In this document: positions 2,900 to 5,573 of the stretch, in pieces | Layout: the number at the start of each line of letters is the position of its first letter | Position numbering within the stretch: the stretch's first letter is position 1 | IMG/VR virus record: IMGVR_UViG_2531839128_000025 | Direction: 5' to 3' (one strand) | DNA from: a virus | Taxonomy: Duplodnaviria; Heunggongvirae; Uroviricota; Caudoviricetes | DNA: 5,573 bases | Program-made: the position numbers and the translations under genes | Notes under the pieces: model-generated | What the model was told of the DNA's origin: nothing | What the model saw: only the letters and a program-made list of their open reading frames with translations | The model's database searches: none

Positions 2900-3970
2900 A
2901 TGGCTAACGCTTGGCTCAGATTATGGCATGACATGCCAAATGACCCTAAGTGGCGAACAATTGCCAGGGTGTCAGGGCAGCCAATTGCAACAGTGATGGC
3001 AGTGTATATCCACCTCCTGGTGAGCGCGTCACGAAATGTCACGCGAGGTCACATTGATGTCACGACAGAAGATTTAGCAAGTGCGCTCGACGTGACAGAA
3101 GAGGTAATTGATTCAATTTTGCAGACGATGCAGGGGCGGGTACTTGATGGTGATTTAATCACTGGATGGGAAAAACGCCAGGTGCTTAAAGAGGACAACG
3201 GCAATATTTCGCAAACCGCAAAATCTCCGGCAGAGCGCAAGAGGGCGCAGCGAGAGAGGGAAAGAAAGCGGGAACAAAATGGCGATTGTCACGGCGCGTC
3301 ACGAAATGTCACGCACATGTCACGACGAGTCACGACAGATAAAGATACAGATAAAGATACAGATCAAGAAGATCAAAACACTATGGTCCATGGCGTAAAA
3401 AACGCCACGAACCAGGCAGGGGATGTTCAGACCGTCAATCCTGGTCAGCCAGCAGGCACGACACCGGAAGCCGATTCAGCGTATGCGCTGAAAGCCGATT
3501 CGGGCGCTGTGCAGCAGGTGATGACCCCAAGGCCGGAGCAATCACACCAACTGCAGCAGCCTGAAGCCGATTCCGCCATTCAGCGGGAAGCCGATCGGGT
3601 AGTCCCGGAAAACACCGGGCTGTCTGTGGGACGAGTGGATTATCCGGATGTATTCGAACAGGTCTGGCGGGAGTACCCGTTGCGTGCCGGAGCAAACCCG
3701 AAGAAATCCGCTTTCAGTGCCTGGAAGGCCAGATTACGCGAGGGGGTGCCACCAGAGGCCATGCTGGATGGCGTGAGGCGTTACGCAAGATACTTGGCGG
3801 CTACCGGGAAAACGGGAACGGAATTTGTTCAGCGAGCGACGACGTTTTTTGGACCGGACCGGAATTTTGAGAACCCCTGGTTGCTCCCGGTAAGCGGCAC
3901 GAACAACCAGCGTTGTGTGAATCATATTTCTGAACCGGATAACGAAATTCCGCCGGGCTTCAGGGGGTAA
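2900..3970 (+). CDS. phage replication initiation protein (replisome-organizer / lambda O-like initiator) carrying its own origin iterons
   Basis: ORF 2894..3970 in the track; the likely start is ATG at 2900 (GAGG at 2891-2894, 5-nt spacer), with GTG at 2894 as alternative. N-terminus ANAWLRLWHDMPNDPKWRTIARVSGQPIATVMAVYIHLL resembles phage replisome-organizer N-domains. C-terminus FEQVWREYPLRAGANPKKSAFSAWKARLREGVPPEAMLDGVRRYARYLAATGKTGTEFVQRATTFFGPDRNFENPW resembles the conserved C-terminal motif of phage DnaD/O-like initiators (recalled). Internal phased repeats plus an acidic DKDTDKDTDQEDQ linker mirror lambda ori-within-O architecture. Confidence 0.85.
   Translation: MANAWLRLWHDMPNDPKWRTIARVSGQPIATVMAVYIHLLVSASRNVTRGHIDVTTEDLASALDVTEEVIDSILQTMQGRVLDGDLITGWEKRQVLKEDNGNISQTAKSPAERKRAQRERERKREQNGDCHGASRNVTHMSRRVTTDKDTDKDTDQEDQNTMVHGVKNATNQAGDVQTVNPGQPAGTTPEADSAYALKADSGAVQQVMTPRPEQSHQLQQPEADSAIQREADRVVPENTGLSVGRVDYPDVFEQVWREYPLRAGANPKKSAFSAWKARLREGVPPEAMLDGVRRYARYLAATGKTGTEFVQRATTFFGPDRNFENPWLLPVSGTNNQRCVNHISEPDNEIPPGFRG
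3024..3064 (+). repeat. iteron-like cluster A: four GTCAC(G/A) hexamers phased at 10-11 bp inside the replication gene N-domain coding region
   Basis: GTCACG at 3028, 3038, 3059 and GTCACA at 3048; inverted copy CGTGAC at 3091-3096. The 21-mer GCGCGTCACGAAATGTCACGC (3024-3044) is repeated exactly at 3294-3314. Confidence 0.5.
3284..3380 (+). repeat. iteron cluster B plus AT-rich tandem repeat: putative replication origin within the initiator gene
   Basis: Five GTCACG hexamers at 3288, 3298, 3308, 3319, 3329 (helical-turn phasing), immediately followed by tandem 12-mers AGATAAAGATAC x2 (3337-3360) and a degenerate AGATCAAGAAGATCAAAAC. The iterons-then-AT-rich layout in the linker between N- and C-domains parallels lambda ori in gene O. 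Confidence 0.55.
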
Positions 3971-4010
3971 GTGTTAATTTCTGGTCATGAGGTAATTTTC
4001 AGGAGGACTT

Positions 4011-4436
4011 GTGGCAAAAGTTTTTACACAAGAAGAGCGGGAAAAAATTAAAGGGCAGGTTGTTGAACTCGTACGCCAGAGTGGGCGCGAGACGTTACGA
4101 CAACTGGAAACTAAAACTGGGGCAACAAGATATCTGATGAGTGTTCTGGCCAGAGAGCTGGTTGCCAGTGGCGATGTATACAACTCTGGTTACGGGTTAT
4201 TCCCGTCTGAACAGGCGCGTAAGGACTGGCAAAATGCCCGTATAAAGCTCTCAAGGGCAAAGCTGAAGAAACCATCTGCGGTTGATCCGGACCTTATCTG
4301 GTCATTACCTGACGGAGAAATACGTCGCTACGATAGTTGTCTAAACATAATCTGTCGCGAGTGCCGGAAGAGCGAAGTTATGCAGCGCATTCTGGCATTT
4401 TATCAGGGAAATGTTAGGTATTTTAGACGTTACTAG
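4011..4436 (+). CDS. hypothetical phage protein, 141 aa, N-terminal winged-helix-like segment; GTG start
   Basis: Strong RBS AGGAGG (4001-4006) 4 nt upstream of GTG at 4011. N-terminal VVELVRQSGRETLRQLETKTGATRYLMSVLARELVASGDVY looks like a wHTH. C-terminal half has a small Cys cluster (CLNIICRECRK). Family not identified; sits where a helicase loader would be in Rac. Confidence 0.7.
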   Translation: MAKVFTQEEREKIKGQVVELVRQSGRETLRQLETKTGATRYLMSVLARELVASGDVYNSGYGLFPSEQARKDWQNARIKLSRAKLKKPSAVDPDLIWSLPDGEIRRYDSCLNIICRECRKSEVMQRILAFYQGNVRYFRRY

Positions 4437-4463
4437 ATTAAAGGGCATTAGTTCAGATATGCA

Positions 4464-4576
4464 TTGACATTTTCATGGCACAAGGTAGAGCTAGCGTGGT
4501 TGTTCGCTTTGTGCCAAGAGTGGTCATTGATAATATTTTGGTGGGTTACATCTGTCAATGTTTCAGGTGATATGAT
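4464..4576 (+). promoter_or_regulatory. candidate promoter/operator region upstream of the AT-rich cargo ORF
   Basis: TTGACA at 4464-4469 with no good -10 at proper spacing. Extended -10 TGaTATGAT at 4568-4576 with no clear -35. 8-bp inverted repeat CATTGACA (4462-4469) / TGTCAATG (4553-4560), and a third CATTGA at 4525. Weak hairpin GGCACAA (4477-4483) / TTGTGCC (4509-4515). All read by eye; none conclusive. Confidence 0.25.
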
Positions 4577-4663
4577 ATACAAATAGCCAGACTTAGACTG
4601 GCATGCTGTTTATTTTTATATTATGGGTGTGCCACATGGATTTAAAACTTATTGAGATATGAC

Positions 4664-5573
4664 ATGGATACTTTTCATAATATTTTGCTTGAGCACATAG
4701 ACAGCCTTTTAAAAGAGAGACTTGATTTATCTGGTGACGCTGATATCGAAAAAGAAATTAATAACCTAATTCCCAAAATAGCCATTGTCGTTAAAAAATC
4801 TCTTATTGGCTCGGCCAATGCAATGCTTAGAGAACATCGTTCTCTTTGTGATGAATTTGTTGAGAGAAATATTTCAAGATGGGCAGAGGCTTTTGATTTG
4901 CTCGAAACACTTATAGTGATATGCACGGAGTCCGGTGAAGAGTTCAATCGTTCTTATAGACCACAAGCTGCCTCTGAAGAGGATGTGGTTTTTGATTTAG
5001 TCGTTCGGCATCACGCAAGAGCTTGCCACATCGCCAACGAAATTTTGTGTCTCTTAAAGAATGGATTTGCAGATGCTGCCCAAGCGAGATGGCGAGCACT
5101 TCATGAGGTAGCGGCCACAGCTATGTTTATAGCAAAGCATGGAAAAGAGTGTGCTGAGCGCTTTTACTACCATGAAGTGGTTGATTCATATACTGGAATG
5201 TTGGAACACAAAAAGTACGAGCACCGGTTAGAAGCAAAAGGTCCAACTATTGAAGAAATAGCTGAGTGTAAAGTTCAATTTGATCTATTAATAAAAAAAT
5301 ATGGCAAAAAATATGCAGATAATTATGGCTGGGCATCTTATATTTTCCCTAACCATAATAAAGTGGGGTTTGGAGCTATTGAGAAAGATGTTCAGTTAGA
5401 ACACATGCGCCCTTATTATAAGTGGGCGAGTCAGAATGTACACACCGGTTCCAAGGCAATGAGAAATAGGCTTGGTCTCTGTGAAACTGGTGATGATATA
5501 TTATTGGTCGGGCAAAGTGATTCAGGAATGGCTGATCCAGCCCATGCTACTGCTATTAGTTTGATGCAGATTA
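4664..5573 (+). CDS. AT-rich cargo ORF of unknown function, partial (303+ codons, 3' end beyond window); candidate accessory/defence gene with HEPN-like R-x4-H motif
   Basis: ATG at 4664 opens a frame with no stop to the window end (protein starts MDTFHNILLEHIDSLLKERLDLSGDADIEKEINNLIPK...). It is absent from the supplied track only because it runs off the window. Strong A/T bias in codons, unlike the replication genes upstream. Weak SD (GAGA). Contains RWRALH (R-x4-H). No family confidently recognised. Confidence 0.75.
   Translation, partial: MDTFHNILLEHIDSLLKERLDLSGDADIEKEINNLIPKIAIVVKKSLIGSANAMLREHRSLCDEFVERNISRWAEAFDLLETLIVICTESGEEFNRSYRPQAASEEDVVFDLVVRHHARACHIANEILCLLKNGFADAAQARWRALHEVAATAMFIAKHGKECAERFYYHEVVDSYTGMLEHKKYEHRLEAKGPTIEEIAECKVQFDLLIKKYGKKYADNYGWASYIFPNHNKVGFGAIEKDVQLEHMRPYYKWASQNVHTGSKAMRNRLGLCETGDDILLVGQSDSGMADPAHATAISLMQI

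Follow-up and report, generated by a model that had tools for sequence, protein, structure and literature searches.

A second array of origin-type repeats among the DNA-binding-domain codons of a prophage replication initiator gene

Introduction

Why should a replication initiator gene carry two arrays of what looks like a single binding word, one in its presumed origin and the other among the codons of its own DNA-binding domain? The question is raised by a viral sequence of 5,573 nucleotides (IMG/VR record IMGVR_UViG_2531839128_000025), the whole of which is called the window here, and which covers the immunity and early-replication region of a lambdoid prophage of Escherichia coli. The gene concerned (2900..3970, + strand), found from the list of open reading frames (ORFs) and a match to the PHROG database, encodes a protein of 356 aa of the replication initiator or replisome-organizer type. 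An earlier note on this DNA had described two clusters of GTCAC(G/A) words within it, termed here array A (upstream) and array B (downstream, the presumed origin core), and had left a bipartite origin, an autoregulatory site and a duplication as possible meanings of the upstream one. Comparison with homologous loci indicates that array A is conserved as DNA and that its word changes together with that of array B.

Results

Two phased arrays of one word

The window contains 11 copies of GTCACR where 4.5 would be expected, a count that none of 200 dinucleotide shuffles reached, and 10 of the 11 copies fall in the two arrays, both of which lie within ORF 2900-3970, as the earlier note had it. Array A is made of four direct GTCAC(G/A) cores (3028..3064, + strand), starting at 3028, 3038, 3048 (GTCACA) and 3059 and thus spaced by 10, 10 and 11 bp, and of a single inverted core (3091..3096, - strand; CGTGAC on the + strand), 32 bp centre to centre from the fourth direct copy; the phased copies and the inverted one are just as the note had reported them. 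Array B consists of five direct GTCACG iterons (3288..3334, + strand; starts at 3288, 3298, 3308, 3319 and 3329) with spacings of 10, 10, 11 and 10 bp. The unit logos of the two arrays are alike, with G at -5, T at -1, G at +1 and C/A at +2.

The arrays share a 21-bp exact repeat, GCGCGTCACGAAATGTCACGC, which comprises two adjacent iterons with a conserved AAAT spacer. Sequence comparison bears out the reported identity of its upstream (3024..3044, + strand) and downstream (3294..3314, + strand) copies; the flanking bases differ on both sides, and the copies, offset by 270 bp or 90 codons, stand in the same frame and read as ASRNVT. The stretch with the four direct cores encodes aa 43-55 (A-S-R-N-V-T-R-G-H-I-D-V-T), and the inverted copy encodes D-V-T in the turn of a helix-turn-helix (aa 64-66). 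Since the four direct copies are read in three different frames, a repeated peptide does not explain the array. When the peptide was kept fixed and codons were redrawn from the window's own usage, four or more GTCAC copies arose by chance with P = 0.0012. Chance or codon bias as the source of array A is ruled out by the shuffles, by this synonymous recoding and by the codon entropies of homologues.

Synonymous sites of array A in homologues

Homologues were fetched from E. coli O157:H7 (L001), from Pseudomonas and Aeromonas phages (L002, L003) and from 58 diverse genome loci; a scan of viral contigs gave only identical E. coli copies. Codon use was compared in 21 non-redundant genes of the GTCAC class without indels (pairwise nucleotide identity 61-87%, median 69%), at residues conserved in at least 80% of them. 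The free synonymous variation that the earlier note had named as the sign of an unconstrained cluster is not what these genes display: codon entropy averages 0.20 bits in the 10 columns whose third base lies inside an iteron core and 1.51 bits in the 48 remaining conserved columns (Mann-Whitney p = 1.3e-6). Val47 and Val54 are written GTC, Thr48 ACG and Gly50 GGT in 21 of 21 genes, His51 is CAC in 20 of 20, Ser44 is TCA in 20 of 21, and Val65, in the inverted copy, is GTG in all 17 homologues compared, whereas other conserved Val, Gly and Thr codons, outside the cores, use 3-4 codons. Val32, Val41 and Val81 each have three or four codons, and Arg49, in a spacer, has four. The CGAACGC class behaves likewise, with 0.00 bits at 7 core columns against 1.25 bits at 47 columns (p = 1.7e-5), only the spacer Gly codon being variable.

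Protein constraint cannot fix third positions, and the near-invariant synonymous sites in the cores therefore point to selection on the DNA itself; judged by codon use among homologues, array A is under purifying selection at the DNA level. Judged by a position conserved from Enterobacteria to Sphingomonads and Acidobacteria, it is also ancient.

The exact 21-mer has to be seen against this background. In loci of the GTCAC class, the longest word common to arrays A and B has a median length of 10 nt within a locus and of 10 nt between loci (p = 0.43), and a 17-mer, GTCACGCAATGTCACGC, recurs in four other loci. As A-B similarity is equal within and between loci, the 21-mer is no evidence of recent duplication, and both recent duplication and ongoing gene conversion were rejected as its source. 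By this comparison it marks the upper extreme of an ancestral unit of two iterons (S-R-N-V-T) that both arrays contain.

Co-variation of the two arrays

In each locus, a phased 6-mer was derived from array B alone and then counted elsewhere. It is found at 17.8 copies per kb in region A and at 0.26 copies per kb in the rest of the locus, that is, 70-fold enriched. The words differ between loci: most gamma- and beta-proteobacterial loci belong to the GTCAC(G) class, about 15 loci to the CGAACGC class and L024, L027, L034 and L040 to the GTAAC(G) class, while GTGACGC is the word in L058, TAACGC in L043 and GGAACGC in L048. The class derived from B equals that derived from A in 43 of 47 loci, and true discordance is found in none, the four non-matching loci being three without array A and L058, a tied case with three copies of the B word in A as well. 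Array A hence carries the same recognition word as the origin iterons, as expected of an accessory or control array.

The words have changed more than once. When region A was left out and a neighbour-joining tree was made from the other N-domain residues, the iteron classes came out intermingled, with GTAAC in at least four places and L035 (CGAACGC) among GTCAC loci, which argues for several independent word switches. The sister loci L026 and L027 (69% nucleotide identity) differ by one of them: in both arrays each direct copy is GTCAC in the former and GTAAC in the latter, and the inverted copies are GTGAC and GTTAC, respectively, including the synonymous Val codon of the conserved 'LDVT' (Val65, which is written GTT where the class is GTAAC, as in L027).

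The core idea of the earlier note, a second array of the origin's sites, is upheld by the synonymous constraint and by the co-variation with array B; of the meanings that it had left for the upstream cluster, a recent or accidental duplication is not supported, the array being ancient and A-B similarity no higher within a locus than between loci.

One locus mixes the words. In L024 (Pantoea), GTAAC, GTCAC, GTGAC and GTTAC copies occur side by side in both arrays (+108 to +231 and +378 to +480), which suggests that the initiator reads the central base loosely or that the locus is midway through a specificity switch.

Gain and relocation of array A

Across loci, array A holds from 2 to 6 or more copies. 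In O157:H7 and E. albertii relatives, a 21-bp (7-codon) insertion adds exactly two more iterons, for a total of six; L024, L026 and L027 show an independent +7-codon expansion, and L043 carries a +14-codon insertion, adjoining a remnant CGAACGC, with a near-copy of about 30 nt of its own B unit, both of which encode ETTGNAGVTQG. All insertions in A fall between T48 and R49. That they are always multiples of 21 nt was considered and dropped: the +7-codon events and L043 (+14) obey the rule, and L028 (+22 or +23 codons) and variants of +1 or +2 codons do not. In L057 the usual place of A is without iterons, and four perfect CGAACGCAAY units, matching the locus's own array B, lie 60 nt further on, in the region encoding the helix-turn-helix.

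Two further arrangements were seen. A 30-codon (90-nt) insertion separates arrays A and B in L016 (+150 to +467). In L044 and L059 (a Serratia metagenome-assembled genome and Pantoea), the same N-terminal domain is joined to a quite different C-terminus (YVYYV...GISRNPWAR...); these two loci have neither the D/K-rich segment described below nor the usual A or B iterons, and words ACTACG/CGTAG are repeated at +314 to +360.

Array B as the presumed origin core

Array B lies in a disordered linker, and its layout is kept in all homologues that have the D/K-rich, low-complexity segment. It is followed by an A-rich, low-GC repeat segment (3335..3382, + strand), presumed to be the DNA-unwinding element, with a 12-bp tandem of ACAGATAAAGAT in two copies, then ACAGATCAAGAAGATCAA..., encoding TDKDTDKDTDQEDQ; GC content at 3340-3379 is 27.5%, with an AT skew of 0.59. 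Directly 3' of this segment stands a palindrome with a 13-bp stem, TGGTCCATGGCGTAAAAAACGCCACGAACCA (3384..3414, no strand assigned), listed as a terminator-like site on the - strand; it recalls the palindrome to the right of the iterons in the lambda ori. Iterons, AT-rich segment and palindrome follow one another as in the lambda ori, and it is for this order that array B is taken as the origin core; together with the adjoining A-rich segment it would form a presumed core of the lambda style. Array B thus combines at least three phased direct repeats, an adjacent AT-rich element and a position in an interdomain linker. Array A has the phased repeats and no unwinding element, GC content being 42-55% over 3020-3139, so that on its own it is no origin of this kind, and it sits in the folded N-domain (aa 43-55). 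No DnaA boxes were found near the origin, and no known RNA family of Rfam overlaps array A or B.

The initiator gene is modular. Some relatives match only nt 1-478 of the query (to about 3357 in the window) and others only nt 496-1089, so that an exchange point is placed just 3' of array B; the recombination breakpoint maps to 3357-3375, just past array B and the A-rich segment. In some E. coli genomes the N-terminal module alone is matched (85-94% identity) and continues into a DnaT-like C-terminus, with a lambda-P-like gene next to it (L001).

The arrays in the protein

An AlphaFold2 model computed from a 55-sequence alignment (mean predicted local distance difference test score, pLDDT, 72, and above 85 for most of aa 11-90) comprises a winged-helix-like N-terminal domain (aa 1-~95) and, after a linker that is basic and disordered, a C-terminal region resembling DnaD/DnaT. 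Helices are modelled at aa 4-14, 16-25 and 29-45, followed by a loop (46-55), a helix (56-63), a turn, a helix (67-77), a beta wing (78-88) and a basic helix (110-127), beyond which the chain is disordered. Array A would accordingly encode the end of helix 29-45 and the loop ahead of the helix-turn-helix, the loop that also receives the insertions, and the inverted copy the turn of that motif; array B falls in the segment aa 130-158, which is predicted to be disordered (pLDDT below 50 from aa 130). The fold is called winged-helix because of the helix-turn-helix-wing topology of the model alone, a Foldseek search of the PDB having returned only non-significant winged-helix regulators (E > 0.4).

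The initiator gene and its surroundings

The initiator matches phrog_3729, 'replication initiation protein', with E = 1e-256 and, less strongly, the 'replisome organizer' families phrog_4880 (6e-6) and phrog_5968 (2e-4). Against Pfam nothing was found at E <= 0.01, so that the protein stays below the PF09681 threshold, and the hidden Markov model of Phage_rep_O (the lambda O family) gave no match, even though 'replication protein O' is the gene's label in some database records. Near-identical genes are present in phages Tritos, Evi and others under the varying labels 'replication protein O', 'primosomal protein I' and 'replisome organiser'. The ATG start at 2900 is backed by a Shine-Dalgarno sequence upstream, AGAGGTGA, and by the MANAWLRLW start common to homologues. 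The N-terminal 487 nt of the gene are matched in 2186 of 5426 complete E. coli genomes (about 40%), O157:H7 prophages included. In its C-terminal half, an imperfect direct repeat of 36 nt (3464-3499 and 3560-3595; 75% identity) encodes PEADSA... twice, 96 nt apart, and the last 24 aa of the protein show a weak match to the end of DnaT (E = 7e-4).

ORF list and profile matches give, upstream of the initiator, a repressor-like gene (1618-2037, - strand), a Cro/YdaS-like gene (2138-2419) and a CII/YdaT-like gene (2403-2828). Operator-like palindromes (1538-1577 and 2034-2110; cores TACCCATAGGTA, TACCCATGGGTA, ACCTGTGGGTA and TACCTGTAGGTA) lie on both sides of the repressor-like gene, that is, 3' of it and in the divergent promoter region ahead of the Cro-like gene. 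A full-length gene for the DicF antisense small RNA (224-275, - strand; Rfam RF00039, 76.7 bits, E = 3e-16) shares its strand with the leftward operon, an arrangement also found in cryptic prophages of the Qin/Kim type. On the 3' side of the initiator, no helicase-loader or helicase gene was found at 3971-5573; this part holds a DUF977/Ren-like gene (4011-4436; ORF list and profile matches) and then a DUF5677 gene (4664 to past the window end).

Discussion

Origins inside initiator genes and accessory iteron arrays in plasmids are both textbook matter, and the locus described here can be set beside several systems of either kind. In phage lambda, and in lambdoid and Stx-phage variants with 4-6 iterons, the origin is likewise internal to the initiator gene and falls where the N-terminal DNA-binding part meets the C-terminal part; helically spaced direct repeats, an AT-rich segment and a palindrome are likewise present, and the N-terminal half is exchanged together with the origin as one module (for lambda, see also PMC7466680). 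The lambda iterons, in contrast, are palindromes of 19 bp forming one array, whereas here asymmetric words of 5-7 bp recur with a period of 10-11 bp and a second array is found in the DNA-binding domain; nor is the present initiator related in sequence to the Phage_rep_O family to which lambda O belongs.

A likeness is also offered by gp47 of the Enterococcus phage phiEf11, a protein of the PF09681/TIGR01714 type, whose linker region holds five GTAACG copies at 10-12 bp spacing followed by (GATAAAGAnATA)n. Its origin (L004, 1477-1580; 5x GTAACG plus GATAAAGA repeats) is aligned by blastn to array B and the A-rich segment, with 80% identity over 63 nt. The N-domains of the two proteins are collinear over aa 4-96 by hhalign (90 columns, 27% identity, E = 0.004, probability only 8%). 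The present initiator is probably a distant relative of the Gram-positive organizers, and the shared layout suggests a very old origin grammar common to phages across phyla. phiEf11 differs in having no upstream array in the N-domain. Origins inside organizer genes have precedents in TP901-1 ORF13, Tuc2009 Rep2009 and r1t ORF11. As a counterpart of the present gene, TP901-1 ORF13 was set aside, being a different protein with a single repeat cluster. More generally, organizer proteins bind direct repeats inside their own genes (PMC8965321).

Two arrays of one initiator's site, hundreds of bp apart and tied to the initiator gene, also occur in plasmid iteron replicons (P1 incC/incA, F incB/incC, RK2 oriV with 5+3 iterons, R6K), where one array lies beside the unwinding element and the other is accessory with a variable copy number. 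Those accessory arrays are intergenic and belong to unrelated protein families, whereas the present one is overprinted on codons of the DNA-binding domain. In the oriC of Bacillus subtilis and Helicobacter pylori, with DnaA-box clusters flanking dnaA, and in oriL/oriR of SPP1, initiator sites also form two clusters parted by all or part of the initiator gene, one of them beside the unwinding element; these clusters are 1 kb or more apart (32 kb in SPP1), against 230 bp here, and involve another protein family, while in the present gene both lie inside coding sequence. Plasmids and chromosomes offer well-known cases of accessory iteron arrays and of bipartite origins (PMC3479198), and looping between split origin clusters has been proposed (PMC3479198; for SPP1, PMC6316719). 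In the published literature on replisome organizers, Eru replication types of Stx phages and bipartite origins, of which our coverage is incomplete, we found no description of the origin of the present family, nor of a second array overprinted on an initiator's DNA-binding domain or of its co-variation with origin iterons.

With a probability of about 0.5, we favour the reading that array A is an accessory initiator-binding array that cooperates with array B in a looped, larger and more cooperative bipartite origin. Its accessory nature is drawn from the lack of an unwinding element and from its occasional loss. By analogy with lambda O (PMC7466680) and with the organizers that bind inside their own genes (PMC8965321), the N-terminal domain of the initiator would be the simplest reader of the GTCACG words of both arrays. 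Array A would capture initiator molecules, and these would contact those bound at array B, the approximately 230 bp between them being looped out; the loop would then stabilize a larger and more cooperative origin complex. Both the A-B looping and a positive effect on initiation are inferred.

Several points weigh against this proposal. Recognition of the words by the initiator is itself an argument from analogy. Array A is missing in 3 of the 47 loci that have array B (L036, L038 and L053), and from the Gram-positive relative phiEf11 as well, which suggests that it is dispensable for origin function. The tree from which the word switches were counted comprises about 67 residues and is weakly resolved, and several of the loci are contigs of metagenome-assembled genomes. 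The distances from the last A copy to the first B copy lie near multiples of about 10 bp (resultant length 0.61 at period 10.0, with shared ancestry not controlled), and helical phasing of A against B was not used as evidence, since shared ancestry and the gain or loss of B copies can explain it. Lastly, an enhancing and a controlling role of array A are not separable by sequence alone.

A controlling role is the strongest alternative, and we regard it as possible, although distinctly less probable than a cooperative one. Array A would then be an incA/incC-type site for negative control or autoregulation, which titrates the initiator, handcuffs array B in cis or on sister copies, or acts as a transcription roadblock for the initiator and downstream genes, and which limits initiation or initiator synthesis. 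P1 incA, F incC and the 3-iteron cluster of RK2 act as control arrays. All that marks array A as a selected array of the origin type fits such a site equally, as do the missing unwinding element, its absence from some lineages, a copy number that varies as in the plasmid control arrays, and a place that rightward transcription must cross, about 130 nt after the start of the initiator coding sequence. Array B, however, lies in the same transcript path, so that a roadblock would not require array A; a limit on copy number would be of no obvious use to a temperate phage in lytic replication; and the sequence holds no hint on the sign of the effect.

All readings other than the cooperative and the controlling one share, taken together, a small part of the probability. 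It is improbable that array A has no function of its own and is the by-product of an old duplication of array B, or of gene conversion from it, kept for the encoded peptide. The peptides of the two arrays are indeed similar and in the same frame (ASRNVT / ESRNVT; NATERGRT / NATERxQT), copying from B to A is seen in L043, and R49-G50 is conserved even where the iterons are lost, as in L038. Protein constraint, on the other hand, accounts neither for the fixed synonymous third positions nor for synonymous Val codons that change from GTG to GTT in parallel with the repeat class, nor for four copies in three frames; ongoing conversion is not what maintains array A, as the equal similarity within and between loci indicates; and L038, which keeps the peptide 'ERG' with AGA in place of CGC, shows protein and DNA constraints to be separable.

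We give no more credence to a reader other than the initiator, be it a host protein, the phage repressor or a signal at the RNA level. Against it, the word of array A tracks that of the origin array, whichever that word is, and co-variation extends to the inverted copies, a sign of duplex DNA and not of mRNA; moreover, the operator-like palindromes of the immunity region differ in sequence (TACCCATAGGTA), and the arrays are without Rfam matches. Least likely of all is a second, independent origin, for which the four phased iterons in the orientation of array B could speak, as array A has no AT-rich neighbour like that beside array B and the sequence 3' of it is constrained helix-turn-helix coding sequence.

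Whichever of the two main roles applies, the novelty lies in an accessory array that is overprinted on codons of its own presumed reader, the DNA-binding domain, and that tracks the origin repeats through several specificity switches. It is a clean natural case of dual coding, in which the same bases specify protein and predicted protein-binding DNA, and an unusually testable one, as all the cores of array A can be removed by synonymous recoding with the protein unchanged. It also carries a warning for annotation, since the invariant S44, V47, T48, G50, H51, V54 and T55 may reflect constraint on the DNA and not on the protein.

Tentatively, and with clearly less confidence than in the cooperative role itself, we propose a wider picture, in which a large family of prophage initiators, present in about 40% of complete E. 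coli genomes and spread through Proteobacteria and Acidobacteria, would have a bipartite origin, with the upstream half overprinted on codons for the DNA-binding domain of the initiator itself. New specificities would arise when iteron pairs of the origin are copied into a tolerant loop in frame-keeping quanta, a 21-bp insertion being two iteron periods. In its strongest version, the loop residues encoded by the iterons may themselves join in DNA recognition, so that a change of the site would be a simultaneous change of its reader. As the module is very common, the arrangement matters for the induction and replication of prophages and may also matter for replication-based exclusion where several of them are co-resident.

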